From the NCBI GenBank assembly GCA_047975435.1, contig JBKEDN010000292.1, positions 18,513 to 82,512 on the forward strand: a stretch of DNA of 64,000 nt. Reading direction: 5' to 3'. A model generated the notes under the pieces. That model was not told where the DNA came from and did no database searches. It saw only the letters and a program-made list of their open reading frames with translations. The position numbers were made by a program, and so were the translations under genes. Shown here piece after piece: positions 14,075 through 36,484 of this stretch; position 1 is the stretch's first letter, and every line of letters starts with the position of its first letter. Origin of the DNA: Draconibacterium sp. (GTDB lineage: Bacteria; Bacteroidota; Bacteroidia; Bacteroidales; Prolixibacteraceae).

Positions 14075-14079
14075 TTATC

Positions 14080-14712: not shown

Positions 14713-14739
14713 TTTAGAACTTTATCACAAACAGATAGG

Positions 14740-14776
14740 TCCCGCTCCGGATAATAATCAGGGCGGGATTTTTTTC
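14740..14776 (+). terminator. Rho-independent terminator candidate after pyrE
   Basis: The stem tcccgc ... gcggga is followed by ttttttt. Confidence 0.5.
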
Positions 14777-14789
14777 AAAAAGCAGACAG

Positions 14790-21325: not shown

Positions 21326-22489
21326 TTATTTCAAAGGCGCTGCAAATTTTAATACATCTGCTTCTGTAATTTCATTATTGCAAAGGATAATCAACCGCTC
21401 AATTACGTTTCTGAACTCACGGATATTACCCGTCCAGTTAATCTTTTGCAATTCGGCAATCGCGTTCTCCGTTATTGATTTTGCCGGCATTCCGTATTCG
21501 TTGCATATTTGCTGAATAAAATGGTTGGCCAATAAGGGAATATCCTCCAGCCGCTCGTTTAGTGCCGGAACTTTAATCAAAATTACGCTTAAACGATGAT
21601 ACAGGTCTTCGCGAAAATTGTTTTGCTCAATTTCTTCCGAAAGATTTTTATTGGTAGCTGCCACCACACGTACATCTACTTTAATGGCTTTATCGCCCCC
21701 TACCCTGCTGATTTCGTTTTCCTGTAAAGCACGCAGCACCTTTGCCTGTGCCGAAAGGCTCATATCGCCAATTTCGTCGAGAAACAAAGTGCCGCCGTGG
21801 GCTTGTTCAAACTTTCCTTTGCGTTGTTTTACGGCCGATGTAAAAGCGCCTTTTTCGTGGCCAAACAATTCGCTCTCGATCAACTCCGAAGGGATGGCAG
21901 CACAGTTCACTTCCACAAACGGACCGGAAGCGCGGTTGCTTTGCTCGTGAATTCGGCGGGCAACCAGTTCTTTCCCCGAGCCGTTTGCACCGGTAATCAG
22001 CACACGCGCATCGGTTGGAGCTACGCGGTCGGCCATATCCAGAATTTCGGAAATAGCTTTTGATTCACCTACTATCTCGTATTTTTTACTGACTTTCTTT
22101 TTCAGAATTTTGGTTTCGCTTACCAGGTTCGATTTGTCCATGGCATTGCGGATGGTAATCAGCAAACGGTTCAGATCGAGCGGTTTCTCGATATAGTCGA
22201 AAGCTCCTTTTTTTATCGAATCCACCGCAGTATCAATATTTCCGTGGCCCGAAATCATCACAATCGGCGAATCGGGCGCCAATACCACAGCACGTTCCAG
22301 CACTTCAATACCATCAAGACCGGGCATTTTTATATCACACAGTACAACATCGTATTCTGCTGAGCGGATCATTTCAACTCCCTTGTTCCCGTCTTCAGCC
22401 AGGTCAACCTCATATTTTTCGTATTCCAGAATGTCTTTTAAGGTGTTCCGGATACTTCTCTCATCATCTATTACCAGGATCTTTGACAT
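21326..22489 (-). CDS. Sigma-54-dependent response regulator (receiver + AAA+), apparently without a C-terminal HTH
   Basis: Start trimmed to MSKILVIDDE (ATG 22489). The receiver has DVVLCDIKMPGLDG. The AAA+ domain has Walker A GANGSGKE, a GAFTSA loop (a GAFTGA variant) and Walker B LFLDEIGDM. The protein ends ...NVIERLIILCNNEITEADVLKFAAPLK, shortly after the AAA+ core. Confidence 0.85.
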   Translation of the reverse strand: MSKILVIDDERSIRNTLKDILEYEKYEVDLAEDGNKGVEMIRSAEYDVVLCDIKMPGLDGIEVLERAVVLAPDSPIVMISGHGNIDTAVDSIKKGAFDYIEKPLDLNRLLITIRNAMDKSNLVSETKILKKKVSKKYEIVGESKAISEILDMADRVAPTDARVLITGANGSGKELVARRIHEQSNRASGPFVEVNCAAIPSELIESELFGHEKGAFTSAVKQRKGKFEQAHGGTLFLDEIGDMSLSAQAKVLRALQENEISRVGGDKAIKVDVRVVAATNKNLSEEIEQNNFREDLYHRLSVILIKVPALNERLEDIPLLANHFIQQICNEYGMPAKSITENAIAELQKINWTGNIREFRNVIERLIILCNNEITEADVLKFAAPLK

Positions 22490-22672
22490 GTGAATTTTCT
22501 TTATTTGAGACTCTAAAAATAACAGTAGTTGGCAGTAATCAAAAATGATTCCAAACAATAATTACGATGAATATTTCTTCGGGGTGCGCGTGGTCTTTTT
22601 AATATTGTTCGCTTAAAAAAAGTGCAAACAGGTTGTTTTCTGCGTAAATCAACAAAATCAGTGGTACCCGAA

Positions 22673-23049
22673 GGATGTCATCTTTTCGGAGAGATGACAT
22701 CCCCGGGGGCTAATAAACCACGGTTACACCCCACAGAAAGGTCCCGGTTTCCAATAGGAACCAGCGGGCTTACAGACCTTCAAGGTTTCGAAAACCTTCA
22801 AGATCTGATAAAGGACCAGAATCCTGAGGATTCGGATGTTTATAGCAGCAAACATGTTCAATGGGCAATTCGACTCCGGCAGGAGTCGCACCCCCTTGCC
22901 GGTGGATTCGGATGCTATAAACATGCAATCCCTCCGGGATTATTGGATGGGTGAACTAGGGATGTCACCTTTTCGAAAGATGACATCCCTGGCGCAAACA
23001 CCAAAAGGGCTCCATTACAAAGCGAAACCAGCAGGATTACCAGACCTTT
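22673..23049. repeat. Mosaic structured repeat, copy A
   Basis: Hairpin ggatgtcatct-N8-agatgacatcc at 22673-22702, and a ggaaccagcggg module. The main module of about 130 bp, cagaatcc...gggattattgg (about 22817-22946), is shared with copies C and D. A second hairpin, agggatgtca...tgacatccct, lies at 22958-22990. Confidence 0.75.
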
Positions 23050-23056
23050 AACTCAG

Positions 23057-23287
23057 GAAACAACTGCTTTAACCGGAGAAATAAGCACTTGAACCCAGGA
23101 AATGACTGCTCAAGGTGGCGAAATAAGCGCTTCAAGTCAGGAAATGGCCACTTGATCTCAAGAAATATGCGCTTAAGGTTGCGAAATAAGCACTTGAACT
23201 TAAGAAATAAGTCCTTTAAGTGAAGAAATGACCACTTCAGGTCGAGAAATAAGTACTTCGACTCAAGAAATGAGGACTTAAGATGAA
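23057..23287. repeat. Tandem array of 11 units of exactly 21 bp
   Basis: Units start at 23057, 23078, 23099, 23120, 23141, 23162, 23183, 23204, 23225, 23246 and 23267. Each begins GAAA(T/C) and has a near-palindromic core such as AAGCGCTT, AAGTACTT or AAGCACTT. Sequence is degenerate, but there are no indels. A partial 12th unit follows. Confidence 0.9.
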
Positions 23288-23313
23288 GAAATCTGTTTTT
23301 AACTTAGTTAGCA

Positions 23314-23321
23314 TAAGTTTG
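23314..23321 (+). promoter_or_regulatory. Candidate Bacteroidota -7 promoter box (TAAGTTTG)
   Basis: Matches TAnnTTTG 54 nt upstream of ATG 23375. I saw no clear -33 TTTG. Confidence 0.3.
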
Positions 23322-23374
23322 CTTTTTTGGCTATAAAGTGCTAAATAGCAGTATCATTTCTAAATTCTCAGACC

Positions 23375-24022
23375 ATGAATAAAAATCAAATCAACAAAAA
23401 AGAGATGTACGATGCAGTATCGTCGTACCTCGACAGCAAGTCGGCCCTTTGGGCATCCATTCCTAAAGTTGGCGAGTTTAAAAATCAGTTTTCGGCAGTA
23501 ATTGCGCAAATAGAAACGGTGCAGTATGCGCAACAAGAGGCGCAGGTATTTTTGGGTAAAACAAAAACACAAATTAAAAGTGTGGTGGCACAAAAGGCCG
23601 ATATCCTGAACGACAGCCTTGAAGCTTTTGCCCTGGTTACCGGCGACGAAAAACTCAGGGTTAAAATGAGCACCTCCTACTCTGATTTGTACAAGCTGCG
23701 CAACGCCGATTTTGGCCCGGCAGTGCAGGCCATTGTTGCAGCCGCCGAAGAAAACATGGAGGTTTTAACGGCCGAATACGGTGTTACCGCCGAACAGGTG
23801 GAAGGTTTAAAGGCCGATTTAGACGAATTTTTGGCCATTAACGGCCAGCCACGCGCCTACAAAGTGGCATCGGTAGAGGCTACCAAAAGCCTGGAGCTGC
23901 TGTTCGACGAGGCCGACGAAATCCTGAATAACAAACTGGACAAAATAATGAGCTTGTTTAAGCGTCGCGACCCGGGGTTTTACAACGGATACCTCGCTGC
24001 ACGCGTTATTGTGGACAGTTAA
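23375..24022 (+). CDS. Hypothetical, predicted all-helical protein
   Basis: Clean 215-aa ORF followed by a strong terminator. I recognised no motif. Confidence 0.6.
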   Translation: MNKNQINKKEMYDAVSSYLDSKSALWASIPKVGEFKNQFSAVIAQIETVQYAQQEAQVFLGKTKTQIKSVVAQKADILNDSLEAFALVTGDEKLRVKMSTSYSDLYKLRNADFGPAVQAIVAAAEENMEVLTAEYGVTAEQVEGLKADLDEFLAINGQPRAYKVASVEATKSLELLFDEADEILNNKLDKIMSLFKRRDPGFYNGYLAARVIVDS

Positions 24023-24052
24023 TGGTTATATTTTTAAAAGTTGATAATTGAA

Positions 24053-24078
24053 GGGCCCGGTTTTCCGGGCCTTTTGTT
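24053..24078 (+). terminator. Rho-independent terminator
   Basis: ggcccgg-tttt-ccgggcc followed by ttttgtt. Confidence 0.7.
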
Positions 24079-24193
24079 GAGAAAGTATTAAATAGTAGTG
24101 TCAAAATAGCATGGAATGCCGATCTGCGTCAGCGGAAAGCATTTTGAGATACAAGAAACTTTTATATTTAACTAATTAGAAGCATTCCAAAAG

Positions 24194-24952
24194 ATGAATT
24201 CTCAAAAATTTGAAAGTTGGTTAATTACCCATAAAAATTATAGCATAAAAACAATTCAAAACAGAATTTCCAATTGCAGGAATGTCGAAAGACATGAAGG
24301 TGATTTAGACAATCATTTTGCAAACGATGAAGGAAGATCACTTCTGGAAAGATTGTCTTATTCAACCGAAAACCAATTGAATAGTGACATCCCAAATCAC
24401 AAAGTGCCAATACATGGAGATCTGAGAGAAGGTTCAGCTACATTAAAATATGCCGTCAAACTCTATATGAGTTATAAAAATTCAGCTCAACCAGACCGAA
24501 AAAAATTAATTGAAAAAACAGAAAAATTAATTTTAACAAAAAAATTAACTGAATCTGAAAAAACCGTTCTTACAAAATACAGAATTGGACAATCTTTTTT
24601 CAGAAACCAGTTAATCGACTTATGGAATGGTTGCTGTTCTATTTCTGGATTTCGCAAAACTGAATTATTAATTGCTTCTCATATAAAACCCTACAACAAG
24701 TGTAAGGAAAATGAAAAATATGATATTTATAATGGACTATTATTAACTCCTAATTATGACAGATTGTTTGATAGGTTTCTAATAAGTTTTGATAAAAATG
24801 GAAAAATATTAATTTCAAGTACACTTTTAAAAACTGATTTAAAAAAACTAAATATTAAGAAAAATGCTACTATCAAACTTAATGAGAAACATGAACCATA
24901 CATGAAATATCACAGAAAAATATTCTTTAAAAAACTTAAAAAGCTAGCTTAA
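24194..24952 (+). CDS. HNH nuclease (HNH_2-like C-terminal domain)
   Basis: The C-terminal block RIGQSFFRNQLIDLWNGCCSISGFRKTELLIASHIKPYNKC...NGLLLTPNYDRLFDRFLISF resembles the restriction-associated HNH_2 pattern. The gene is visibly AT-rich. Confidence 0.7.
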   Translation: MNSQKFESWLITHKNYSIKTIQNRISNCRNVERHEGDLDNHFANDEGRSLLERLSYSTENQLNSDIPNHKVPIHGDLREGSATLKYAVKLYMSYKNSAQPDRKKLIEKTEKLILTKKLTESEKTVLTKYRIGQSFFRNQLIDLWNGCCSISGFRKTELLIASHIKPYNKCKENEKYDIYNGLLLTPNYDRLFDRFLISFDKNGKILISSTLLKTDLKKLNIKKNATIKLNEKHEPYMKYHRKIFFKKLKKLA

Positions 24953-25222
24953 TATATGTATAAAATTATTCTGCCTCAATTAAATCCCGTATACAAAGAT
25001 GAGATAAATCCGTTGGATTGATTTTGGAAGTTGTGTCTCAGGCTGTAAGACTGAAAGTGGCAAAAACAGAGTTTTGTTTGTAACAAAAAATTTGATTACA
25101 AACCGAAATCAGTGAGTGACCATTTTATGCTGCCACTGGATTAAAGTGATGTCGGATGGTGAAATTGGTTTTATTTTTTAATTCGTTATTTTAGGAGATT
25201 AGATTTTTAAACCGTTTAATTT

Positions 25223-26140
25223 ATGAGTACAAACACAGAACTACTAACTTCAAATGACTTGGTTAATTATTTTAGAGTAATGCACCATGCGGATTATATC
25301 CTGAAGTATCGGGACGATTATAAGTTATTTGCCAATAATATATTACAAGTTGTTACAACAGAAAAGTATCTTAAAGCAATTCCTGATAAAATTTTCATAG
25401 ATGCAATTTCTTTCCATTTTAATGCAATAAGGCTTGTATTTGGAAGATCCTCTAAAAGGTTTCAACAACTTCTTCCAGAAATACCATCCAGTATACAGAT
25501 TAAGTTTCTGTCAGATGCCATTAGTATGGGAGATATTTCTTATAGTTTTGATGAAGATCCAGAAAGTCTTGAGGATATTTATGACGAAGAATTTTTTGAT
25601 TGGCTAGTTCAACTGAAAGAAAGTGTGGCAAAAATTGAGGATTATTTTAATTCTAAGGAATATTTAAATCATAAGCTATCCATGCAAGAATTTATAAATT
25701 GGAAAAATAATGATGGAAAAATTTTTGTTTTTATATGGTTTGAAACAATAAAAGAGCTTAGTAAAATTAAATTAAACGAAAAGGATATCACCAAAGAAGC
25801 AATTCAAGATGCATGGGATCTTTACAACAAGTACTCTCCGAATACAAAGAAGTTCTCAATTCCCATACATAAAAAAACAAAGATTCCTCTTTATATGTTC
25901 TTGGTAGCATTGGAATATATAGCTGCTTTGCATGATAATAAGTTGCTTAAACAACTACCGTATACAGAGGTTCCCAACCAACATAATTTATTAAAACAAT
26001 CAATCCCCCAAAAAGCATCTACTCCTAAAAAGAAGAAGGCTAAACCCCAAAAAAGTCCATATACGTACATGTCGAAAATACCTGGGAAATATCTACCAAT
26101 AACAACTTCAAGTTCCATATGGACGGTAAGAAATAGGTGA
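25223..26140 (+). CDS. Hypothetical protein with Lys-rich C-terminus
   Basis: 305-aa AT-rich ORF with the tail PQKASTPKKKKAKPQKSPYTY. I recognised no family. Confidence 0.5.
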   Translation: MSTNTELLTSNDLVNYFRVMHHADYILKYRDDYKLFANNILQVVTTEKYLKAIPDKIFIDAISFHFNAIRLVFGRSSKRFQQLLPEIPSSIQIKFLSDAISMGDISYSFDEDPESLEDIYDEEFFDWLVQLKESVAKIEDYFNSKEYLNHKLSMQEFINWKNNDGKIFVFIWFETIKELSKIKLNEKDITKEAIQDAWDLYNKYSPNTKKFSIPIHKKTKIPLYMFLVALEYIAALHDNKLLKQLPYTEVPNQHNLLKQSIPQKASTPKKKKAKPQKSPYTYMSKIPGKYLPITTSSSIWTVRNR

Positions 26141-26145
26141 TTCCC

Positions 26146-26262
26146 CCGCTGGCGCGATTTTGTAAATCGTGCCTCAGCCGGCAAGGCTAAAAAAATAAGC
26201 CAGCGGTTTTTTGTTTGTATAAAAAGGTCCCGATTACAAATCGGAACCAGCGAGGGCAAGCT
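26146..26262. repeat. Mosaic structured repeat, copy B (terminator-like)
   Basis: The module ctggcgcgattttgtaaatcgtgcctcagcc is shared with copies C and D. The outer stem ccgctggc ... gccagcgg is followed by tttttt. A hairpin ccgatt-aca-aatcgg and a ggaaccagcgagg module follow. Confidence 0.65.
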
Positions 26263-26293
26263 AGTTCGGCAATAATTATAAAAAACCAAAAAC

Positions 26294-27154
26294 ATGAAAC
26301 AAACACTATTTTTATTACTTATGACAATTATCCTTTTGTCATGTAAAAAAGAGGAAGAAATTCCAATGGAGATAAAAGCTTGTTTTTCGTTTAATTACAA
26401 TGGAGTAATAAATGACGGAGAAATTCAATTTTTAAATTGTTCAGAAAATGCTACTAATTTTCTTTGGGATTTTGGAGATGGACAAACCTCCACCGAAAAA
26501 GAACCTTTGCATCTTTTTGAAAGTATAAATGGCGTGTTTCCTTATTTTGTTACTTTAATTGCTTACAATGGAAATGAGACGGACACTATAAAAAGATCAA
26601 TTTTTGATGATATTCATACAGAAAAACCAAACATATACATCTATCCAGATTCTCAACTAAATCTTTGTTTAAAAATTAATTTTCCTATCGGTGGAAATAT
26701 TGTGAAATCAATTCCGGAATATGGAGATGGATGGTGTTTTAACGTTGATAAAAATGGAATTATTGACAATCAATATACCTATCTATTTTATGAAAGCATA
26801 CAACCAGATATTTACCAATATGAAAAAGGATGGTGTATAAAAAAGGATTCTTTATCTTCTTTTTTTAAACAAAATATGAAAATGTATAATTTTTCAAATG
26901 CTGAAATTCAAGACTTTATTGATTATTGGATTCCATTATTGAATAAAGCGGATTATTATAAAATTTATCCTCAAACAAATAAAATTATCGACAACATAAT
27001 TCAATTAGATTTTTCAGAAAAACCAGATAATGTATATCGTTTATTTTATGGGATTGTTGAAACAGACAAATATTATGAATTAGAAAAACCAACAATTCTC
27101 GCATTTAATCGAAACGGATTTTATGTTGTTGAATGGGGAGTATTTAGAAAATAA
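26294..27154 (+). CDS. Lipoprotein with PKD-like domain
   Basis: Lipobox MKQTLFLLLMTIILLSC. The PKD-like signature is FLWDFGDGQTSTEKEP. The gene is AT-rich. Confidence 0.65.
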   Translation: MKQTLFLLLMTIILLSCKKEEEIPMEIKACFSFNYNGVINDGEIQFLNCSENATNFLWDFGDGQTSTEKEPLHLFESINGVFPYFVTLIAYNGNETDTIKRSIFDDIHTEKPNIYIYPDSQLNLCLKINFPIGGNIVKSIPEYGDGWCFNVDKNGIIDNQYTYLFYESIQPDIYQYEKGWCIKKDSLSSFFKQNMKMYNFSNAEIQDFIDYWIPLLNKADYYKIYPQTNKIIDNIIQLDFSEKPDNVYRLFYGIVETDKYYELEKPTILAFNRNGFYVVEWGVFRK

Positions 27155-27202
27155 CTATTGCTTAGGAAGTACATATTGCAGGGCGGGGTTCGGTGGTAGG
27201 CT

Positions 27203-27412
27203 GCTGGCGCGATTTTGCAAATCGTACCTCAGCCTGCGAGGCTGAAAAAATAACTGCAATCTTTAGAAATGGTTTTGAGAACAGAATCCAGCGGATTCGG
27301 ATGTTTATAGCAGCAAACGTATTTAATGGGCAATTCGACTCCAACAGGAGTCGTACCGTTGTTGGTGGAATTAGATGCTATAAACATGCAATCCCTCCGG
27401 GATTATTGGGAT
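27203..27412. repeat. Mosaic structured repeat, copy C (full main module)
   Basis: Runs ctggcgcgattttgcaaatcgtacctcagcctgcgaggctga ... cagaatccagcggattcggatgtttatagcagc ... cgactccaacaggagtcg ... tgctataaacatgcaatccctccgggattattggg. It aligns closely with copies A and D. Confidence 0.8.
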
Positions 27413-27555
27413 AATGACTGAAAAAGCGAAGATGTATGGATTGTCTTTGGATACCCGAAGATATCCCCCCGTTGGTGCGCGATTCCATCGCGTTCCGTTC
27501 ACAAATAAAATAGTGCACAACTCACAAATAGTAATAAAAACTTAAACCCGAACCC

Positions 27556-28806
27556 ATGAGCCGAATACGAAAAAAGAAAAAACCTAACAGCAAACAACTG
27601 GAGGCTGAAAAACGAAATCATTTTCTCAGGCATATAAAACATATTTTTATTGAAAGTGGTTGCGGGCAGGTTTATCGCGTGCTAACACCAAGGGTTATGC
27701 AAGCATTATATACGATTAAAGACAGCTCGTTAAAAATACGCCCGGGATATTGCCCGTGTTTAAGCAACAGCGAAATCAGGCACCTTAAACAGCTGATTGA
27801 TAAGGAAGCGCAGCACACCCAAGTAACCATTAAAAACAGTGGTTATACCATGTCGATGAAAGTGTTTTACACTTACGGGCTGAGTTTGTATAGTTTGCAG
27901 GGATGGTTTGCCGAGCAGGAAGGACCGGAAATGCAAGAGGCTTATTCCATAATGAAAGAGCGGTTGGATATTATACAGGCTGAAACGGATTTCAGATCGC
28001 GTTTGTTGGCATTTTGCAGTACTTTTTCAATGATCGCATCGGAGCTGAATAAGTTTCAGGTACATGTAAAACCGAAAATTATCACCGAAACCTCGGGACG
28101 TGTAAAAGGGCTGGAATTCGAAATTAATGCATATCCCTGTGAGCAAAAGAAATTTCGAATAGATGGACATACCCGGCCTGCTTTCCGGGTTGGTTCTTAT
28201 GCCTATTATAAGGTTTATCCTGAATGGATACTGGTAAAACGGTCATCATTTGAAAAACCAACACCTTTCAACAATATCGAAATTCCGGTTTACATTCAAA
28301 TGCATGCACTGAATAGGCTAAGTGAACGAATAGATACACTCAGCCGCGATTGTGTGGAACTGTATGTATATCTTTCTTTTCAAAACCCGGTTATTACATT
28401 CTTCCGCGGAAAAATACTTGTTGATTATGTGTACGCACAAACAAAATTGGGTTATTTGCTGGTAGAAATAGTAGATAATGTTTTGTTGATAAAAACATTT
28501 CTACTTCTTACCAACCAGGCCACTCCCGAGGGGGAAAAACTTAAAGCCTTAACCGGGTTATCGAAAATTGATATGCAATACTGGAATATCGACCGTTTAA
28601 GTACCTTTCAAAAAACCGATATTGAAGAAAATGAGGAACTAAAATTGATTTTTAGTACGGCAGGATGTGGCAAGTTGTTTAGCAAGGCCGTTAATTTTCT
28701 TGAAGACGAAGACAAGGAACACAAGCATATTGCCGAAAATATTCTGAAATATTGCCTCAAGGAAGAAGATGAGCCGGGTTCTCCATCCAATGGCGCAATT
28801 TTGTAA
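27556..28806 (+). CDS. Hypothetical protein
   Basis: 416-aa ORF with a basic N-terminus, MSRIRKKKKPNSK. I recognised no motif. The last few codons and the stop lie inside repeat copy D. Confidence 0.5.
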   Translation: MSRIRKKKKPNSKQLEAEKRNHFLRHIKHIFIESGCGQVYRVLTPRVMQALYTIKDSSLKIRPGYCPCLSNSEIRHLKQLIDKEAQHTQVTIKNSGYTMSMKVFYTYGLSLYSLQGWFAEQEGPEMQEAYSIMKERLDIIQAETDFRSRLLAFCSTFSMIASELNKFQVHVKPKIITETSGRVKGLEFEINAYPCEQKKFRIDGHTRPAFRVGSYAYYKVYPEWILVKRSSFEKPTPFNNIEIPVYIQMHALNRLSERIDTLSRDCVELYVYLSFQNPVITFFRGKILVDYVYAQTKLGYLLVEIVDNVLLIKTFLLLTNQATPEGEKLKALTGLSKIDMQYWNIDRLSTFQKTDIEENEELKLIFSTAGCGKLFSKAVNFLEDEDKEHKHIAENILKYCLKEEDEPGSPSNGAIL

Positions 28807-29095
28807 ATCGTACTTCAGCTGGCGCGATTTTGCAAATCGTGCCTTAGCCTACGAGACTGAAAAAATAACTGCAATCTTTAGAAATGGTTTTGAGAACAGA
28901 ATCCGGCGGATTCGAATGTTAATAGCAGCAAACGTAGTTAATGGGCATTCCGACGACAGGAGTCGCACTCCCTTGCCGGTAGATTCGGATGCTATAAACA
29001 TGCAATCCCTTCGGGATTATTGGGATTGGTAAACGAGGGATGTTATCTTTTGAAAAGATGATTACAAACAGGAACCAGCGGGAGCAACCAAGTGG
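28791..29095. repeat. Mosaic structured repeat, copy D
   Basis: The tggcgc(a/g)attttg(t/c)aaatcgt module is duplicated. The full main module runs to gggattattggg. It is followed by the hairpin gggatgttatctttt-gaaaagatgat and a ggaaccagcggg module. Confidence 0.8.
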
Positions 29096-29195
29096 TAGCC
29101 TCACTCGGAGTGAGATCACTAAGTTGCGGTGCTGATCCCGAAAATCATTCGGTGCTAATCGGCATAATTGGCGAGCTATTTCTTTTCAGCAAAAT

Positions 29196-29227
29196 CAAAA
29201 AAAATCCCGATGAAAAACTCACCGGGA
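29196..29227 (-). terminator. Rho-independent terminator closing the psr-yeeE-rhodanese operon
   Basis: On the minus strand, tcccggtga-gtttt-tcatcggga (one mismatch) is followed by tttttttt. Confidence 0.55.
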
Positions 29228-29256
29228 CTTTCAGAAATATATACTTGTATGGTTTT

Positions 29257-29916
29257 TTAGCAACCTCCGGCAGCAACGTTCGATTTTTGACGGCGCTGAA
29301 CCTGAACCGGTTTCTTTACTACTTGTGCTGCTTCGCTTCCGTCTTTTGGGGCGGCCATTTCAGCATAATTAAAACGGGCAATACCCTTTTTAAAGGAGTC
29401 ATCGTTTTGGGTAGTTGCCAGATTATCTTTGTGTTCGAAATAATAGCTATAACCACCCAACAGCAACTTTACATTGCTAAACCCCACCTGGCGAAACAAC
29501 ATCCACGGCCCGTTGGCCTGTAATTCGTCTTCGCCATAAAGGACAACAGTGGTTCCATTATCGCGCAATTCTTTTAAACGCTCTATGTTTTCTTCGCGTG
29601 TGAGGTTATTGGCCGACATATTTTCTGCACCCGGAATATGTCCCTGCCCAAAAACAAAATTATCGCGAATATCGAACAGCACAATGTTTTCAGGCTTGTT
29701 ACTGATTACATCTTCCAACTGCCAGGGATAGAAATAAGCGTCAGAATCGTCAAGCGCTGCTACGCTTTCGCTCATGCTTTTCTCGAAAGTAAGCAGCGGT
29801 TTGTGCACGGTTAAGAAACCAACAATCAGAAGAACCACAAAAGCAGAAAGGGCAATAAGTGTTCTCCACGGATTTAATTCATGTATATGCATGGTATTGA
29901 TTTTTTCAAGTTTCAA
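29257..29916 (-). CDS. Membrane-anchored rhodanese-like protein lacking the catalytic Cys, with C-terminal ...KSNVAAGGC
   Basis: It has a TM anchor (LIALSAFVVLLIVGFL) and the rhodanese pattern VLFDIRDNFVFGQGHIPGAEN ... TVVLYGEDELQANGPWMLFRQVGF. Gly occupies the usual active-site Cys position. The TTG start at 29916 may be replaced by ATG 29892. Confidence 0.75.
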   Translation of the reverse strand: MKLEKINTMHIHELNPWRTLIALSAFVVLLIVGFLTVHKPLLTFEKSMSESVAALDDSDAYFYPWQLEDVISNKPENIVLFDIRDNFVFGQGHIPGAENMSANNLTREENIERLKELRDNGTTVVLYGEDELQANGPWMLFRQVGFSNVKLLLGGYSYYFEHKDNLATTQNDDSFKKGIARFNYAEMAAPKDGSEAAQVVKKPVQVQRRQKSNVAAGGC

Positions 29917-30531
29917 TTAACAACCACCGGCTGCCACATTCGATTTCTCTCTTCGTTGCACCTGAACTTCCACTTTCGAAACATCGGAAGGTTCGGCACT
30001 TGCCCCCGTAAAATACATTTGTGCTCCTTTTCTGAATGTGTAGGTTTCCTGGTCGGCATACGGAGCATCGCCCGAAGGTTGCTGCGGATCGATAATGGTC
30101 TGTATCCAGCCGTTTAACCCTCCCCGCATAACATATGTTCCTTTGTAACCCAGCCTTTTGGTAAGTACCCACATTTGGTCGGCCTTAATATCGTCGTCGG
30201 ATACAAACACTACTTTGGTTCCCTTAATTCCGAAGTAAGAAAGATTTCCCGGGCTCAACAGGCTGTCGAGCGGAATATTAACAGAACGTGGCAACGAATA
30301 ATTTTGAAAATCTTCTTCATTTCTCACATCTACCAGCATCAGCGAAGGATCACCTTTGATAATCATTTTTGCGACCTGGTCGGTAGTTACATACCTTGTT
30401 GGCTGAATAATTTCCTGAAGCAGAATTTCGGGATCAACCTGGTTGGGTTCATCGTTCATTTTCAGGAAAAGGGTTCCAACGGCCAAAACAAGCATTAGTA
30501 TGGTTAGAAAAATATAATTTCTGTTCATCAT
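29917..30531 (-). CDS. Membrane-anchored rhodanese-like protein lacking the catalytic Cys, with C-terminal ...KSNVAAGGC
   Basis: It has a TM anchor (IFLTILMLVLAVGTLFL) and the pattern LMLVDVRNEEDFQNYSLPRSVNIP ... KVVFVSDDDIKADQMWVLTKRLGY. Ser occupies the active-site Cys position. It is a paralogue of the adjacent gene. Confidence 0.75.
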   Translation of the reverse strand: MMNRNYIFLTILMLVLAVGTLFLKMNDEPNQVDPEILLQEIIQPTRYVTTDQVAKMIIKGDPSLMLVDVRNEEDFQNYSLPRSVNIPLDSLLSPGNLSYFGIKGTKVVFVSDDDIKADQMWVLTKRLGYKGTYVMRGGLNGWIQTIIDPQQPSGDAPYADQETYTFRKGAQMYFTGASAEPSDVSKVEVQVQRREKSNVAAGGC

Positions 30532-30532
30532 T

Positions 30533-31135
30533 TTAGAATTTATATTGTTTCATATTCTTACGAACACGTTTTTCGATAAACATGGTTACCCAGAAAGCAG
30601 CCAGCGCAACAACCGTAAAGGCCAACGCAAAATAGGATGCCGGGATTCCGGTAACATCGGTAAGTGTTACATTTCCGAGCGAGCCACTATTGTAAAAGTT
30701 CTCGAACAGCGGGAAAGCCAGCGAAAAACCGAAAATTCCGACGTACAAGCCAATTGTAAAAAACAAGGCATCGAGCTTGCCAATGGCCACACCGGTAAAA
30801 CTGGTTCCCGGGCAATAACCGCCTATTATAAAGCCAAATCCCATGATAATTCCACCAACGATCATCGGCCCTAAATAAGTAGGAAGTATAAATATTTTGG
30901 AAAGATCGAGCCAGCCCAGGTAATCAAAATACATGATGCCCACCATGGCAACGATAAGTGCGGTAAAAAATACGCGAAGTACAACAAAGTTATAGCCATA
31001 AAATACTCCGGCCAGATTTCTTGACGACGAGAATCCGGAGGCTTCCAGAATAAACCCGAAAGCAATTCCGATTAAAATAGCGATTAAAAAATCCCAGCCT
31101 TCGCCAATTATACCGTTAGGAATTAAAGGTCCCAT
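30533..31135 (-). CDS. YeeE/YedE family sulfur-compound transporter, half-size subunit
   Basis: Polytopic 200-aa protein with the motif GGYCPGTS. Confidence 0.8.
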   Translation of the reverse strand: MGPLIPNGIIGEGWDFLIAILIGIAFGFILEASGFSSSRNLAGVFYGYNFVVLRVFFTALIVAMVGIMYFDYLGWLDLSKIFILPTYLGPMIVGGIIMGFGFIIGGYCPGTSFTGVAIGKLDALFFTIGLYVGIFGFSLAFPLFENFYNSGSLGNVTLTDVTGIPASYFALAFTVVALAAFWVTMFIEKRVRKNMKQYKF

Positions 31136-31232
31136 ATTTTATTGTTTTTGAATGTTCTGTTATTATTTTAGTCTCAGTGTTCAGTAAATTAATCTTGCGA
31201 ACTGATTCCTGTAAACTGCGACTGTCAACTTT

Positions 31233-31769
31233 CTATATCCACAATTTTCTAAAGAAGTAGGCGATGATGTACCCGGTTCCAAAAATGCCGAACATGACAA
31301 TTACACCTCCCAGTGCAAACGTTGAAGTTCCGCTAAGTGCGGCGCCACTTGTACATCCACGCCCGAACTGGCTGCCAAGGCCAAACAATGCTCCTCCGAT
31401 GATCGCCAGAATCCAGCGTTTTTTACTGCTTATTTGCGGGCCATGATCGGTTCTGAATTTACCAACACGGCCAAAAATTAACCCGGAAAGCAGACCACCA
31501 ATCAACACACCTAGCGACTCGAAAACCAACCAGGTGTACATCGGTGAATGATCGTCGCTGACAAACTTGCCCATGTAATTATTGGCTTTTGTAGCCGTTG
31601 GGGCAATTGTATTCGAGGTAGTTACCACAGCACTTTTGATGGCGCCGCTGGCTCCAAGCCCTCTGCCTGTAATATAAACTGTTGCAAGTATCAGCAGCCC
31701 CAGCAATACTCCTCCCAGGTAGGGATTGATATATTTGGGCTGACTCCCAATGCTATTATTTACGTTCAT
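31233..31769 (-). CDS. YeeE/YedE family sulfur-compound transporter, half-size subunit
   Basis: Polytopic 178-aa protein with the motif GRGCTSGA. Confidence 0.8.
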   Translation of the reverse strand: MNVNNSIGSQPKYINPYLGGVLLGLLILATVYITGRGLGASGAIKSAVVTTSNTIAPTATKANNYMGKFVSDDHSPMYTWLVFESLGVLIGGLLSGLIFGRVGKFRTDHGPQISSKKRWILAIIGGALFGLGSQFGRGCTSGAALSGTSTFALGGVIVMFGIFGTGYIIAYFFRKLWI

Positions 31770-31788
31770 GTTTATGATTTTTTTTGAT

Positions 31789-32730
31789 TTAGTACAAATA
31801 GCGTGTTATCTGGCCGGCCTCTACCATGATAAAGCGGAACATTAAACCGCCAATCAGAATCATTACCGGAGGCAACCACTTTGGTACATGAAACCCCCAA
31901 AGTTCAAGTGTTTCCATAATTGCCGGGAACACCAGTCCGAGAATAACCACAAATACCCAGAAACTTACGGTAAATGGACCACCTAGGAACAAATTAGCTG
32001 CTTCTATTGCCGTTTGTGATCCGGCCTTGAAACCCATAAAAAGGTGAACGATTAAAAAGAGTTCGATCACAATAAAAATCAAATCGATCCGGCTCAGTTT
32101 TTTACGTTCCTTTTCATCTTTACTGATCCAGATAATGGTTGCCAAACCAGTTGAGAATCCAGAAACCAGGAACAATGGCCCTAAAATAGAAGTGTTCCAA
32201 AGCGGGCGGGCATTAAAGGCCGACAACAAAATACCGGTATAAACACCAAGAATAATAGCGTAGATCATCATTGCCCATGCAAAATATTTCCGGTTTTTGA
32301 TTACCCACGCTTCAAATTGTTCCAGCAAACTAAATTTCCAGTTCCACCCGGGAACCAGTTCTTTCATGTAACTGGCTACCCAAATAAAAGAGAGTGGCGA
32401 AATTACCATCAACGTCCACGCTCCCCAACTCATCGGAGATTCCAGCCTTACAGTTGTATATAACTGCCAGAAAAACAGTTTGTGTTTCAGATCGAGAAAC
32501 AGCGCAAACAAACCCAGCACCAGCGCAATAGGTGCAATAATGGGAGCCCACTTTACCGTTGCCTGCATTTGTTTTTCTTTTCCACGAACCACATAAAATC
32601 CGGCAAAGAAAAGAATACCGGCTGCCAAACCTCCTAAAAACAAATAGAGAGGAATTTGCCAATGCCAGATATTGAGGTATGGATCAATATTCGGAATATT
32701 ACGTCCGCTTACAAATAATTCTTCCTTCAT
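31789..32730 (-). CDS. NrfD/PsrC-type quinol-interacting membrane subunit
   Basis: 313-aa polytopic membrane protein encoded directly after the 4Fe-4S subunit. Confidence 0.8.
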   Translation of the reverse strand: MKEELFVSGRNIPNIDPYLNIWHWQIPLYLFLGGLAAGILFFAGFYVVRGKEKQMQATVKWAPIIAPIALVLGLFALFLDLKHKLFFWQLYTTVRLESPMSWGAWTLMVISPLSFIWVASYMKELVPGWNWKFSLLEQFEAWVIKNRKYFAWAMMIYAIILGVYTGILLSAFNARPLWNTSILGPLFLVSGFSTGLATIIWISKDEKERKKLSRIDLIFIVIELFLIVHLFMGFKAGSQTAIEAANLFLGGPFTVSFWVFVVILGLVFPAIMETLELWGFHVPKWLPPVMILIGGLMFRFIMVEAGQITRYLY

Positions 32731-32742
32731 AAATTTTGTTTT

Positions 32743-33276
32743 TTAGGTAAGAAAATACAATTGAGGTTTTGTACCGGCTTCGGGTGCCAGCACTTTCCAT
32801 TTACGGTCTTTGATGGCCAGTGAAACATCACTGTTTGGATCGTCGAGATCACCAAAATGCAAACACCGCGTTGGACAAACATCCACACAGGCCGGGTTTT
32901 GTCCTTTCTGAACACGGTGTAAACAAAAGGTACATTTATCCACATAACCATCCGGGTGCGAATAACGCGCATCGTACGGGCACGACTGAATACAGGCACC
33001 GCAGCCAATACATTTATCGTGGGTAACGGTTACAATCCCGCCTTCCTCGATGTGGCTGGCGCCGGTAGGACAGCAACGTACACAAGGAGAATTATCGCAA
33101 TGATTACAACGTTCGGAACGAAACTCCAGGCTGATGCTTGGATACGTTCCGTCCACACTTTCCACAATCCAGTCGCGGCAATAGCCATGAGGCACATTAT
33201 TTTCTGTTTGACAGGCTACTACACAGTCGCCACATCCGACACACTTTTTGGTGTCAATTGCCATTGCATATCTCAT
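32743..33276 (-). CDS. 4Fe-4S ferredoxin-type electron transfer subunit (PsrB/PhsB/DmsB-like)
   Basis: Cys clusters CVGCGDCVVAC, CNHCDNSPCVRCCP, CIGCGACIQSCP and CTFC...CVDVCP. Its start overlaps the stop of the catalytic subunit (ATGA). Confidence 0.88.
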   Translation of the reverse strand: MRYAMAIDTKKCVGCGDCVVACQTENNVPHGYCRDWIVESVDGTYPSISLEFRSERCNHCDNSPCVRCCPTGASHIEEGGIVTVTHDKCIGCGACIQSCPYDARYSHPDGYVDKCTFCLHRVQKGQNPACVDVCPTRCLHFGDLDDPNSDVSLAIKDRKWKVLAPEAGTKPQLYFLT

Positions 33277-35528
33277 GCTTTAACCTCCTTTCCTTCACGC
33301 GCAGGTTCTTCTGTTAAAAAAGTTATAAAGTTTCCTCTCATACCGGTTCCTCCCATTACCGGATCAACTGCCACGTTAGTGATCATTTCAGTATCGGCTG
33401 CGCCGCGCCCGAATGCCCTCGACAGTTTTTTGTTATTGTGCCCAAACCCGTGAACCATGTAAACCGAATCCCAGCGAATCCGTTCTGTTACACGCACCTT
33501 CACCGGAAACGATGTTATAGCGCCATCCTGGTTTTTCAGCCACACTTTCTGGTCTTTTTTCAAGCCCCACAAATCAGCCACTTTTGGGTTTACCCAAACA
33601 CTGTTTTCACTCATCAAATCCGAAAGGTTTGGATTGTTTGACGTACGGCTGAACGTGTGCATTGGCGCACGGCCGTAAATGAGGCGGTAGAAATTCTGCG
33701 GTGGTTCCGGGTGCCTGGTATATTTTGGCATCGGATCAAAACCGTGGTCGGCAAAATCAGTGGAATACAATTCTACTTTACCGGTATTTGTATTGAACGT
33801 GAAGTCTTCCCCGTCGCCCAGGTACAACGGGCCACTTTTCCTCGGGAACTTCTTTATCCCAATCTTTTTCATTTCTTCGAGCGAGGTACCCAGCTTTTTC
33901 AGCTGCCAGTCGATCACTTCTGCATAATCATCGTAATTGAAGTAATCATGCAAACCGAGGCGTTCGCCAATTTGTTTGGCAATCCACCAACCCGGTTTCG
34001 AGTCGTATTTTGGCTCGATGGCCGGCATTCGCAAAGCAATGTTGGGTTCGCGGTTTGCTGCCGAACGAATTACATCGTATCGTTCCAGGTAAGTTGCTTC
34101 CGGAAATACCACATCAGCATAACCTGTTATATCCATTGGCATTGTATCCATAACTGCTATAAATTCTACTGCTGCGGCAGCTTCTTTAAACAGCGGTTTA
34201 TCCGGCATCGACAGTGGCAAATTGGTTCCTGCCACCAGCCATGCTTTTACCTGGTGCTCGTAATTATATCGCGGGATTGATGCTTTCAACAGCTCGGTGG
34301 TAATCCCCATTGTTGCCAGCGGATATTTTCCGTAATTCAGGTTCTTCCAGGTCCATTCCGGCTCGGGATATTCCGGTTGCGGAAATTCCGGGATTGAAAC
34401 ACCTTCGGGCATGTACAAGCTTCCACGTTTCCCCCAGGCGCCCAACAAGGCCGAAAGAATGGCCATTGCACGTTCGCGCTGGGTATCGTCACCATACCAA
34501 ACCACATGACGCCCCGGATGAATGACTACTGCCGGCGCTGCTCCCGCCATTTCGCGGGCTGTCCTGCGAATCTGTTCCGGCTCAATGGTGGTAATTCCGT
34601 ATGCCCATTCGGGAGTCATGCTTTTCACATGCTCTTTCAGATAATCAAAACCGAATGTATATTTTTCAACAAATTCCTTGTTGTAGAGCCCTTCGTAAAT
34701 CAACACATGTATCCAGGCCATCAGCAAGGCAATATCAGTTGCCGGCTTAATCGGGAGCCAGTAACTTGAATGTGCGGCTGCCGTTGATAAACGGGGGTCA
34801 ACTGTAATAATGGTTGCACCATTATCAATTGCTTCCGACATTTCCTGTACCTGCGAATTGTGCATGTTCTCACCAATGTGCGAACCGATCAGAACCAAAC
34901 AACGGGTATCCCGGATGTCGGTTGACTCAGGAGAACCAACATACGCACCAAAAGTTGAATAATAGGCAGAAGAACGTGGTCCGCGACAATTGGCAAAAGC
35001 TGGTTCAGCATTGCTTTCAGAACCATAGGCACGCAAAAGATGATGGAAGTGGCCGCCCGGAGTACCGTGATTAAATAACCCAAAAGCTTCCGGCCCGTAT
35101 TTCTCTTTTACCTCTTTCATTTTGCCGGCTACCAAATCCAGCGCTTCTTCCCAGCTTGCTTCCCGGAAATACTGGCTGCCGTCTTTTTTTGTTTCCCTGA
35201 TCAGCGGTGTTTTCAAACGGTCTTCGTCGTAAACCATCCCAACACCGCCTGTTCCTCTCGGGCATAAACGACCGTTACAATGCGGATCTTCCTTATTCCC
35301 AATCACTTTCCTGATTCGGCCATTCTTATCAACGTAGGCCCATCCGGCGCATTTCCAGAAACAAACTTCACAGTAAGTAGGATACGGAGTCAGGTCTTCG
35401 TCACTCACGGGCCCGTCCGATTCCGATTTGAACAAGCCAAACCCGTTCGAACCAAAAGCTTTCAAGCTTAAAGCTGCCGCCCCGGTACCAACTGCTGAAA
35501 TTTTGATAAAATCCCGTCTTGTTTTCAT
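33273..35528 (-). CDS. Tat-exported molybdopterin oxidoreductase catalytic subunit (Psr/Phs/Ttr/Arr-type; substrate unresolved)
   Basis: Start trimmed to MKTRRDFIKISAVGTGAAA, which carries a twin-arginine motif. The N-terminal FeS cluster is CEVCFWKCAGW...CNGRLCPRG. The mature protein is about 750 aa. Confidence 0.88.
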   Translation of the reverse strand: MKTRRDFIKISAVGTGAAALSLKAFGSNGFGLFKSESDGPVSDEDLTPYPTYCEVCFWKCAGWAYVDKNGRIRKVIGNKEDPHCNGRLCPRGTGGVGMVYDEDRLKTPLIRETKKDGSQYFREASWEEALDLVAGKMKEVKEKYGPEAFGLFNHGTPGGHFHHLLRAYGSESNAEPAFANCRGPRSSAYYSTFGAYVGSPESTDIRDTRCLVLIGSHIGENMHNSQVQEMSEAIDNGATIITVDPRLSTAAAHSSYWLPIKPATDIALLMAWIHVLIYEGLYNKEFVEKYTFGFDYLKEHVKSMTPEWAYGITTIEPEQIRRTAREMAGAAPAVVIHPGRHVVWYGDDTQRERAMAILSALLGAWGKRGSLYMPEGVSIPEFPQPEYPEPEWTWKNLNYGKYPLATMGITTELLKASIPRYNYEHQVKAWLVAGTNLPLSMPDKPLFKEAAAAVEFIAVMDTMPMDITGYADVVFPEATYLERYDVIRSAANREPNIALRMPAIEPKYDSKPGWWIAKQIGERLGLHDYFNYDDYAEVIDWQLKKLGTSLEEMKKIGIKKFPRKSGPLYLGDGEDFTFNTNTGKVELYSTDFADHGFDPMPKYTRHPEPPQNFYRLIYGRAPMHTFSRTSNNPNLSDLMSENSVWVNPKVADLWGLKKDQKVWLKNQDGAITSFPVKVRVTERIRWDSVYMVHGFGHNNKKLSRAFGRGAADTEMITNVAVDPVMGGTGMRGNFITFLTEEPAREGKEVKA

Positions 35529-36097
35529 ATAAGAAATATTTTTTAGCAGTAAGGGTAAAATGTTTACCATCCCACTATTCCATTCATCTTACAATATGTA
35601 TATCTAAATATTTATATTTCTAGATATCGTCGCAAATATATAAAGGTTTTGGTAGAAGAAAGCTGTCAGTTGATAATTTGAAACCATTAAAAATAAGCAA
35701 TTTAGATCAATTTTAACCAAGAGCAAAATAAAATACATATGATTATTTCAATATATATCTAATACCTGTAAAACAATTGATTACATCACATTATTTGCAT
35801 TATATTTAGTTAAAAACAAAACACCTTTACGTATTTTATTAAGAACAAATGGCACAATAATATCAAAATACTAAACAACATAAGTTCAATAACTAATTAT
35901 TGGGAATATCCTCTAAACCAAAGACATCTAACTCAATTGTACTGTTTGCAGAAGCATAAAAAAAGACAGACGGTTTCAATTTGTTCCAAATTATCTCATA
36001 TTTGCCAAACCAATAGGAGTAGTGTGTCTGCCAAAACAAGATTTAATGATGTTTAATAAAGACACATAATCCGGGTTTCAAACAAAAATATTAGCAG

Positions 36098-36484
36098 ATG
36101 AACAACAGAAGGACATTTCTGAAAATAGCCATTACCGGAATCGTTGCTTTTTTTGTGTTTATCTGGAACAAGCTAACCTTAACCCATTTGGAGGTTTCGC
36201 GGCAAAAAGAAAGTACCCTTCCATTTAATAAGAATAAGGAAGTTTCGTTTGCCGAGCACTATATTATTGTTACACAAAATAATTCCACCACCGTTTTTTC
36301 GGCACATTGCACACACCTGGGGTGCAAAATTGACAAATCGGAAGGCGACCGCCTGGTTTGTCCCTGTCATGGTTCGGAATACGATTTACAGGGAAAAGTA
36401 CAAAAAGGCCCGGCCTACAAAAACCTGGAGGTTTTACCTTCGCGAATTTCTGACGATGGAAAAAATATCATAATCGGAGCCTGA
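36098..36484 (+). CDS. Rieske [2Fe-2S] protein with Tat signal
   Basis: MNNRRTFLKIAITG, then CTHLGCKI ... CPCHGSEY. Confidence 0.85.
   Translation: MNNRRTFLKIAITGIVAFFVFIWNKLTLTHLEVSRQKESTLPFNKNKEVSFAEHYIIVTQNNSTTVFSAHCTHLGCKIDKSEGDRLVCPCHGSEYDLQGKVQKGPAYKNLEVLPSRISDDGKNIIIGA

Follow-up and report, generated by a model that had tools for sequence, protein, structure and literature searches.

How insoluble or low-concentration sulfur reaches the buried site of a polysulfide reductase (Psr), and how a YeeE/YedE channel is fed from the periplasm, are two unresolved questions for which the answers understood so far are the Sud protein (for Psr) and SoxY (for Sox, perhaps also for SoxT). Both questions are raised by a 64,000-nucleotide stretch of DNA from Draconibacterium sp. 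(contig JBKEDN010000292.1; this whole stretch is called the window in the following), in which a single operon combines genes for a Psr-like reductase, a split YeeE/YedE and two rhodanese-like proteins, Rhd1 and Rhd2. If our reading of these two proteins is correct, they represent a third solution, in which a rhodanese scaffold has traded its catalytic Cys for a terminal one within a co-evolving pair that is tied to Psr and split YeeE.

Rhd1 and Rhd2 carry their only cysteine as the last residue

The two genes are arranged in tandem on the minus strand, and the parts of them that matter here are the following:

29917..30531, minus strand: Rhd1, consisting of an anchor helix, a Cys-less rhodanese domain and a C-terminal arm (Pfam Rhodanese, 50.0 bits)
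29257..29892, minus strand: Rhd2, consisting of the same three parts (Pfam Rhodanese, 56.5 bits)
30463..30516, minus strand: N-terminal signal-anchor helix of Rhd1, residues 5-22, unusually conserved in orthologues (helix over residues 3-24 in the AlphaFold2 model)
30175..30213, minus strand: degenerate active-site loop of Rhd1, VVFVSDDDIKADQ, acidic and with Ser replacing the catalytic Cys in the alignment with PspE and GlpE
29509..29547, minus strand: degenerate active-site loop of Rhd2, VVLYGEDELQANG, with Gly replacing the catalytic Cys (GlpE Cys65 column)
29920..29973, minus strand: tail of Rhd1, VEVQVQRREKSNVAAGGC, with the Cys codon at 29920-29922 followed by TAA
29260..29310, minus strand: tail of Rhd2, PVQVQRRQKSNVAAGGC, with the Cys codon at 29260-29262 followed by TAA

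A preliminary description of this DNA had proposed tandem paralogues composed of an N-terminal anchor and a rhodanese domain, and both open reading frames were recovered as such, with scores above the Pfam Rhodanese cut-off of 22.2 bits and a rhodanese fold in the AlphaFold2 (AF2) models, which makes both proteins members of the rhodanese homology domain family (PF00581). In databases Rhd1 is called from its second ATG at 30528, yielding a protein of 203 residues. For Rhd2 the ATG at 29892 (MHIHELNPW..., 211 residues, as in orthologues), located 24 nucleotides past the Rhd1 stop, is a likelier start than the TTG at 29916. No NCBIfam model reached its cut-off for either protein and Pfam gave Rhodanese alone, the N-terminal part showing a weak resemblance to the rhodanese/DsbD-type TsoB model of NCBIfam.

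Aligning the catalytic column to Cys65 of GlpE and to the Cys of PspE placed Gly at this position in Rhd2 (VVLYGEDELQ) and Ser in Rhd1 (VVFVSDDDIK). The loop Cys and the positively charged, CxxGxR[ST]-like cradle of an active sulfurtransferase are thus replaced by Gly or Ser within acidic loops, and matches of this type should not carry an active-sulfurtransferase annotation. Each protein contains one Cys only, which is its last residue. Whereas the two paralogues share 29% identity in BLASTP, their final 16 residues are identical at 15/16 positions (VQVQRREKSNVAAGGC versus VQVQRRQKSNVAAGGC), a likeness that had been pointed out before, with identical codons at 6/16. Since both stop codons are TAA, a selenocysteine read-through joining the two in-frame rhodanese reading frames was ruled out.

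In most Rhd1 orthologues a second Cys is found in a GGLNCW motif that follows the final strand of the domain, and two Cys residues were present in 72/120 of the closest Rhd1 homologues. The Rhd1 of the window has GGLNGW instead (residues 136-141, ~30106-30123), indicating that this second Cys is dispensable in at least some lineages.

Loss of the loop cysteine and retention of a terminal Gly-Cys across the family

To place these proteins in their family, we compared ~130 cluster representatives and 80 genomic loci from Bacteroidota and relatives. Searching 1.84 billion 50%-cluster representatives with Rhd2 yielded 603 matches at E<=1e-3, 207 of them at E<=1e-10, and 492 homologues were obtained for Rhd1. 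The 80 loci derive from a one-genome-per-species scan that was seeded from a 25-sequence subset of the Rhd2-type alignment; it takes in solely Rhd2-type genes with the motif NGPWM[LIV][LF]xQ and is therefore biased to this clade. The loci are distributed over Prolixibacteraceae, Marinilabiliales, Lentimicrobiaceae and other Bacteroidales, as well as metagenome-assembled genomes (MAGs) labelled Chlorobiota and Neomarinimicrobiota.

The replacement of the catalytic Cys turned out to be a property of the whole family. Among the Rhd2-type sequences (n=129), the catalytic column is occupied by Gly in 109, Ala in 6, Ser in 5, His in 5, Asp in 2 and Tyr and Cys in 1 each, whereas the Rhd1-type sequences (n=84) contain Ser in 66, Ala in 10, Cys in 4, Gly in 3 and Asp in 1. 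The loop Cys is thereby absent from 128/129 Rhd2-type and 80/84 Rhd1-type sequences. A profile alignment restoring a conserved Cys to the loop had been named as one observation that would refute a relocated thiol, and the alignment yielded no such residue.

The opposite end of the protein displayed the reverse pattern. A Gly-Cys end, either ...GGC or an acidic ...EEEEGC, was found in 127 of the ~133 full-length representatives among the best 150 Rhd2 matches, and two further full-length representatives end in GGCS or GGCG. For Rhd1, 118/120 of the closest homologues end in GGC and 82/84 of the Rhd1-type sequences taken from the loci end in GC. Such proportions lie far beyond chance. The residue preceding the terminal Cys is an essentially invariant Gly, mostly as part of Gly-Gly; in alignment A1, whose sequences were chosen for ending in GC, G210 and C211 of Rhd2 are both invariant. 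The terminal GC is kept in orthologues down to 29% identity, so that the C-terminal motif, whose conservation had likewise been asked for, holds across the family. Our literature searches turned up no account of a rhodanese that lacks the loop Cys and ends in a Cys.

A few family members deviate from this picture. A Rhd1-type protein of locus L087 (9196-9822) contains the loop Cys (LVFYCNDG) and lacks the terminal GC, ending in RPRVIQAV, and its Rhd2 partner is Cys-less in the domain and ends in an EEEEGC tail. This protein is an anecdote that would point in the direction of the thiol having moved. The Rhd1 orthologues of loci L063, L064 and L072 contain a loop Cys together with a GGC tail. 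In one Rhd1 orthologue (P0057) on a JGI metagenome contig, L090, a TGA is found at the codon of the terminal Cys, followed by TAA (757-771; tcc ggt ggt tga taa), reflecting a selenocysteine in this place or else the loss of the Cys through a point change or a sequencing error. This is a single case on a contig of 916 bp, with an AT-rich downstream region without an obvious selenocysteine insertion sequence (SECIS) hairpin. Multi-repeat rhodanese matches (P0160 and similar) consist of ordinary Cys-containing repeats and were set aside as irrelevant.

The two tails of a genome resemble each other

We compared the tails of Rhd1 and Rhd2 over positions -14 to -4, leaving out the GGC, in 77 genomes. 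Tails from the same genome were 71% identical, in contrast to 43% for tails of Rhd1 and Rhd2 from different genomes and 44% for orthologous tails, and in 61/77 genomes the tail of the own paralogue ranked in the top 10% of matches. In a permutation test, 0/2000 permutations reached the observed mean (p < 1/2000). Outside the tails, Rhd1 and Rhd2 of the same 77 genomes are 24% identical. When orthologues are aligned, conservation is lowest in the linker (0.29 in Rhd2 columns 181-190) and climbs again towards the C-terminus, to 0.65 and finally to 1.0.

Identical tail residues are encoded by the same codon in 42% of the cases within a genome versus 40% between genomes. Together with the 6/16 codons of the window, this ruled out recent gene conversion as the source of the likeness, which is thus probably due to selection for a common sequence. 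The tails have probably been selected to fit one shared partner or binding site.

Linkage of the tandem pair to Psr and split YeeE

The two rhodanese genes form the distal end of seven closely spaced minus-strand genes extending from 35570 down to 29257 in the order psrA-psrB-psrC-yeeE_a-yeeE_b-rhd1-rhd2, with all assignments backed by Pfam. The five genes preceding the pair are:

33273..35570, minus strand: psrA-like molybdopterin catalytic subunit (Pfam Molybdopterin, Molydop_binding, Molybdop_Fe4S4 and TAT_signal)
32743..33276, minus strand: psrB-like 4Fe-4S electron-transfer subunit, a four-cluster ferredoxin (Pfam Fer4_11 and related families)
31789..32730, minus strand: psrC-like, NrfD-type quinol-interacting membrane subunit (Pfam NrfD, 154 bits)
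31233..31769, minus strand: yeeE_a, PmpA-like half corresponding to the C-terminal half of YeeE/YedE (Pfam Sulf_transp, positions 176-309/310)
30533..31135, minus strand: yeeE_b, PmpB-like half corresponding to the N-terminal half of YeeE/YedE (Pfam Sulf_transp, positions 4-159/310)

The psrA product matches PsrA of Thermus thermophilus (2vpw) over its full length (E 4.8e-187) and is periplasmic by its twin-arginine translocation (TAT) signal. In the NCBIfam scan no model reached its equivalog cut-off for this protein, the top match being PhsA with 439 bits under a cut-off of 694; the psrB product resembles NrfC/ArrB/DsrO/TtrB-like models. Together, a TAT-exported molybdenum bis(pyranopterin guanine dinucleotide) subunit, a four-cluster iron-sulfur subunit and an NrfD membrane subunit constitute the PsrABC/PhsABC architecture. 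The two YeeE/YedE genes encode half-size proteins with one conserved Cys each, located in GRGCTSG for yeeE_a and in GGYCPGTS for yeeE_b, the latter protein having a basic C-terminus, and thus represent the split PmpA/PmpB type, for which the halves and their Cys equivalences have been described (PMC11582611). The yeeE_b stop and the Rhd1 ATG are 1 nucleotide apart.

Wherever the contig was long enough, the loci showed this gene order, even at Rhd2 identities as low as 29%, and the linkage of the rhodanese pair to psrABC is conserved in ~70 loci. The co-occurrence of a Psr-like reductase and YeeE/YedE in one operon, first remarked on for the window, is hence strictly conserved in related loci. 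Distant members, which were looked up independently, showed different sets of companions: locus L086 comprises psrABC-rhd-rhd without YeeE, locus L087 comprises yeeE_a-yeeE_b-rhd-rhd without Psr, and loci L088 and L091 contain all seven genes. The constant element is therefore the tandem pair, accompanied by Psr and/or split YeeE, and the rhodanese genes always occur in tandem after these companions. In L091 an ArsP/HMA gene adjoins the operon.

A further type of link was found in a Draconibacterium MAG (OY781971.1; locus L008), which contains a second, Psr-less locus (12786-15223). Here, adjoining yeeE_a and a b-type cytochrome, a single gene (14024-15223) encodes a fusion of 399 residues composed of the YeeE_b half, an extra transmembrane helix, a Cys-less rhodanese domain and a ...KKASGGCS tail. 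We regard this fusion as a Rosetta stone that ties the tailed rhodanese to the channel.

Membrane side, fold and predicted disorder of the tail

Several lines of evidence bear on the compartment of the rhodanese domains. First, ~6-10 family members, including both proteins of L086, have a lipoprotein signal peptide in place of the anchor. Second, the other members exhibit a net charge of +1.76 before the anchor helix and of +0.15 over the 15 residues after it. Third, in the fusion of L008 the stretch that joins the last helix of YeeE_b to the anchor of the rhodanese is strongly basic, which places the rhodanese domain outside. In addition, the PsrA encoded in the operon is itself exported by its TAT signal. 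Judged by these lipobox variants, the positive-inside charge pattern and the fusion topology, the domains of Rhd1 and Rhd2 are predicted to face the periplasm, answering a question that the preliminary description had posed. The N-terminal helix of Rhd1 shows column identities of 0.77 and 0.67 over the first 20 positions of the orthologue alignment, and this unusual conservation suggests that the anchor is retained and packs against a membrane partner.

Both AF2 models have a confident rhodanese core, with a predicted local distance difference test (pLDDT) score above 90. The model of Rhd2 has a mean pLDDT of 91.9, and its residues 181-211 are devoid of secondary structure, with pLDDT falling from 84 to 61. 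For Rhd1 the mean pLDDT is 80.2, with a core above 90 and values of 32-37 for residues 178-203. The C-terminal 26-31 residues of both proteins are accordingly predicted by the models to form an unstructured arm. Foldseek returned single-domain rhodanese structures as best matches (e.g. 3o3w, E 1.5e-6), and across Foldseek and profile searches of the PDB the hits were generic rhodaneses with none specific for the tail. Sud (1qxn) appeared in the PDB profile search as a weak match (E 1e-4).

The tail is almost confined to rhodaneses and recurs in a third family

Within the loci (1.44 Mb) and the window, 1273 open reading frames have at least 150 residues; 174 of these end in GC, and 171/174 are Rhd1 or Rhd2. 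Two of the three remaining ones belong to a further family, Rhd3, so that the ending is almost confined to rhodaneses and a general C-terminal sorting signal is unlikely. Rhd3 genes were found at:

L058, 43-558
L059, 1352-1870
L092/L093, 9001-9540
L094, 9001-9516

Rhd3 is a lipoprotein rhodanese of ~171 residues with an intact canonical loop CKKGxRS (LYCKKGKRS) and a tail of the form ...EKNLDxxxHEEEEEVGGC, and 120/120 of its closest homologues end in GGC. Genes for a multihaem cytochrome c (PF11783) and a cytochrome b of the Ni_hydr_CYTB type precede the Rhd3 gene, with Crp-family regulators on its flanks; one genome has the gene in an island together with Crp-type regulators, more rhodaneses, Porin_O_P, the Rieske/cytochrome b pair and psrABC. 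No Rhd3 gene was found in the window. Like Rhd1 and Rhd2, Rhd3 occurs in the same lineages and the same compartment, has an invariant terminal GGC and is surrounded by respiratory redox genes, but in contrast to them it keeps the catalytic loop and is encoded by a single gene after multihaem and b-type cytochromes. The shared tail therefore appears to be a module that several periplasmic sulfurtransferases of respiratory systems have in common, and this favours sulfur chemistry over a general sorting signal.

Comparison with known sulfur carriers

Sud of Wolinella succinogenes binds polysulfide sulfur on its Cys and passes this sulfur on to Psr. Like Rhd1 and Rhd2, it is a periplasmic protein with a single-domain rhodanese fold, a single Cys and an association with PsrABC (PDB 1qxn). 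In Sud, however, the Cys is located in the active-site loop and the protein is a soluble homodimer that lacks a Cys-bearing tail at its C-terminus, whereas Rhd1 and Rhd2 are two diverged, membrane-anchored paralogues that lack the loop Cys and display the thiol at the end of a predicted disordered arm. They share with the Sud type the periplasmic location and the psrABC association; because the loop Cys is absent, they are not of this type.

Flexible C-terminal redox tails with Gly-Cys-type ends, which bring substrate or electrons to or from a buried active site, are found in thioredoxin reductase (GCUG) and in MerA (terminal Cys pair). These are flavoprotein disulfide reductases whose tails act within one enzyme, and they are not known to be homologous to Rhd1 and Rhd2. 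Like Rhd1 and Rhd2, TsuB/YeeD and TusA are small single-Cys proteins encoded beside a YeeE-family channel, and they relay sulfur, as the pair may do here; TsuB/TusA, which are needed for YeeE/TsuA function, differ in being cytoplasmic and having a TusA fold with a CPxP Cys. As neither Pfam nor NCBIfam gave a TusA-like match for Rhd1 or Rhd2 and both fold and compartment differ, an assignment to this group does not apply.

A parallel to the tail is offered by SoxY, in which pathway intermediates are bound to a Cys on a swinging arm (PMC5336275); for its sulfane sulfur, a route via the channel cysteines of the YeeE-like SoxT has been suggested (PMC11582611). SoxY has its carrier Cys in a Gly-rich flexible C-terminal arm and is part of a periplasmic heterodimeric carrier, both of which may also apply to Rhd1 and Rhd2. 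SoxY differs by its beta-sandwich fold, by a GGCGG motif in which the Cys is followed by Gly-Gly, by the presence of the Cys in SoxY alone and by serving an oxidative pathway, whereas Rhd1 and Rhd2 combine the rhodanese fold with a terminal Cys (GGC) in both proteins and a reductive, Psr-linked context. Their tail, disordered in the AF2 models, is kin in kind to the SoxY arm, although the motif is not the same. Pfam gave no SoxY or SoxZ match, Rhodanese being the sole match for both proteins, and the different fold shows that they are not SoxY. By analogy, their role would thus resemble that of Sud and their device that of SoxY, amounting to a rhodanese-scaffold carrier with a relocated terminal carrier Cys in a co-evolving pair.

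On the side of the presumed partners, YeeE contains a positively charged periplasmic indentation beside its outer Cys, C293 (PMC7449682), and in the psr operon of Desulfurivibrio secreted rhodaneses occur alongside YeeE and were proposed to serve both Psr and YeeE (PMC12142623).

A putative heterodimeric carrier with terminal persulfides

Based on these likenesses, we propose that Rhd1 and Rhd2 form a membrane-anchored, periplasmic heterodimeric carrier that does the job of Sud with a SoxY-like arm and bears sulfane sulfur on the terminal cysteines, a reading to which we assign a probability of roughly 0.5. With Ser or Gly at the position of the loop Cys and with acidic loops, the rhodanese domains would be catalytically dead and act as scaffolds. 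The functional group would be the thiol of the very last residue, on an unstructured arm of ~26-31 residues. The arms may load sulfane sulfur from polysulfide, S0 or thiosulfate as cysteine persulfide or polysulfide, and would then pass it into the substrate funnel of PsrA, the TAT-exported subunit, in which electrons from menaquinol would release sulfide, and/or deliver it to the periplasmic mouth of the split, PmpAB-like YeeE/YedE channel, near its conserved Cys. Both arms of a genome would be alike because both must fit the same partner site, and the invariant small residue before a Cys that is itself last, with a free carboxylate, would fit entry into a narrow, anion-binding site.

The preliminary description had already suggested that the sulfur-carrying thiol moved to a flexible C-terminal arm that shuttles sulfur between the YeeE/YedE transporter and the Psr-like reductase. 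The arm itself gains from the lost loop Cys, the retained terminal GC, the unstructured tail and the periplasmic location. The shuttle does not fare as well: since L086 contains Psr only and L087 contains YeeE only, exchange between the two cannot be the whole story.

Several points weigh against the proposed carrier. Persulfide loading, heterodimer formation, the docking sites and the direction of sulfur flow are steps that we infer. The acidic degenerate loops (SNDDIKADQ; GxDQLEANG) make it unlikely that the domains stabilise anionic sulfur. Tail charge varies from basic (RRKK...GGC) in this clade to acidic (EEEEEGC) in others, a switch not easily reconciled with one conserved docking site, and old gene conversion followed by synonymous saturation may contribute to the likeness of the tails. 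As Psr occurs without YeeE nearby and YeeE without Psr nearby, neither partner is obligatory in cis. Furthermore, the substrate of the PsrA-family enzyme (polysulfide, thiosulfate, tetrathionate or selenite) is not readable from sequence, and the conserved divergent Rieske and cytochrome b-multihaem genes of ~45 loci fit poorly.

Alternative explanations

The alternative that survives best assigns the two terminal cysteines to a split redox pair, in which an intermolecular disulfide/dithiol reduces or resolves persulfides, polysulfides or the YeeE channel cysteines; the pair would then be a thiol:disulfide oxidoreductase and would not carry sulfur to Psr. Such a pair would account for the invariable presence of two proteins, each with one Cys, and for the likeness of their tails within a genome, and it would find a precedent in SoxS and DsbA, proposed to release sulfur from SoxY for the YeeE-like SoxT (PMC11582611), as well as an echo in the weak likeness of the N-terminal part to TsoB. 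By Pfam, however, the operon is without a thioredoxin-like or DsbD-like domain or an electron source for a periplasmic dithiol, Rhd3, a lone protein that has a catalytic Cys, bears this GGC tail too, and the YeeE_b-rhodanese fusion locus shows one tailed protein only. We thus consider a split redox pair unlikely, noting that it overlaps with the carrier model and does not exclude it.

A smaller chance still is given to the tail being a processing, sorting, anchoring or metal-binding signal, with a Cys that is lipidated, cross-linked, a metal ligand or removed, and with the domains as structural accessory subunits of Psr or YeeE. The position at the very C-terminus, an invariant small residue ahead of the Cys and the polybasic or polyacidic stretch do recall known C-terminal signals, the co-varying tails could reflect one shared processing enzyme, and an ArsP/HMA gene lies by the operon in L091. 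But we know of no such C-terminal Cys signal in Bacteroidota, and the related loci share no neighbouring gene that would be a candidate for the processing enzyme. The tail is moreover confined to these rhodaneses (171/174), which likewise makes the removed sorting or lipidation signal, raised earlier as a possible objection, improbable, and Rhd3 joins it to an intact catalytic Cys, pointing to sulfur chemistry.

Least probable, and in our view very unlikely, is a selenium system, in which the PsrA-family enzyme would be a selenite or selenium reductase, the thiols would bind selenium as a selenotrisulfide (R-S-Se-S-R) and YeeE/YedE would transport it. The respiratory selenite reductase SrrA reportedly belongs to the PsrA/PhsA clade and has rhodanese genes in its operon. 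Although two thiols are a natural ligand set for Se(II), YedE-family proteins are tied to selenium metabolism and transport (PMC11582611, PMC5322559) and one metagenomic orthologue (L090) has a TGA at its terminal Cys codon, the PsrA of the window is closest to Thermus PsrA, related loci share their islands with several ordinary rhodanese genes, Porin_O_P and cytochromes, a setting typical of sulfur respiration, no sel genes were seen in the window, and the TGA stems from a lone 916-bp contig with no evident SECIS.

Returning to the carrier, one may tentatively extend it, with the odds somewhat against the extension, to the view that reductive sulfur or selenium respiration in Bacteroidota and relatives runs on a covalent carrier as in Sox. 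The substrate of PsrA would then be the persulfide or polysulfide on the C-terminal cysteines of a dead-rhodanese heterodimer, the arms would also plug into the periplasmic mouth of the split YeeE and thereby pass sulfur across the membrane, and the GGC tail would be a portable carrier-arm module of at least three rhodanese families. The family has a wide distribution among sediment Bacteroidota (Prolixibacteraceae, Marinilabiliales, Lentimicrobiaceae and others), which are generally regarded as polysaccharide fermenters, and this distribution flags an overlooked sulfur-respiring capacity.

Surroundings of the operon in the window

Beyond the seven genes, the following features were identified:

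29200..29232, minus strand: intrinsic-terminator-like hairpin and T-run ending the seven-gene operon (15-pair stem, then TTTGATTTTG)
36098-36484, plus strand: Rieske protein (Pfam Rieske), divergent from psrA
36486-39185, plus strand: cytochrome b/multihaem c fusion of 899 residues (Pfam Cytochrome_B and Cytochrom_c3_2/C7), divergent from psrA
21326..22558, minus strand: sigma-54-dependent response regulator (Pfam Response_reg and Sigma54_activat)

The Rieske and cytochrome b/multihaem c pair is kept upstream of psrA in ~45 related loci and therefore probably belongs to the same respiratory module, in which it may act as a quinol oxidase that feeds periplasmic haems. The genome nearest to the window is that of Maribellus sp. 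YY47, with 89-99% protein identity over the operon. In relatives the response regulator begins ~60-450 nucleotides past Rhd2 (e.g. L007 and L006), whereas here an insertion intervenes.

This strain-specific insertion of ~6.7 kb (22559-29256) is located between rhd2 and the response regulator, and its GC content is down to 0.30-0.36 in part versus ~0.43 elsewhere. None of its plus-strand open reading frames has a counterpart in the 80 related loci; among them are those for an HNH_2 endonuclease (24194-24952) and for a protein with a PKD domain (26294-27154). At its edges and within it, an intergenic element of ~210 nucleotides is present in three direct copies (22738-22946, 27203-27409 and 28818-29023) that are 62-94% identical. 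An Rfam search of 22400-36200, these copies included, gave no match; the element could be a repeat element, an attachment remnant or a small RNA.

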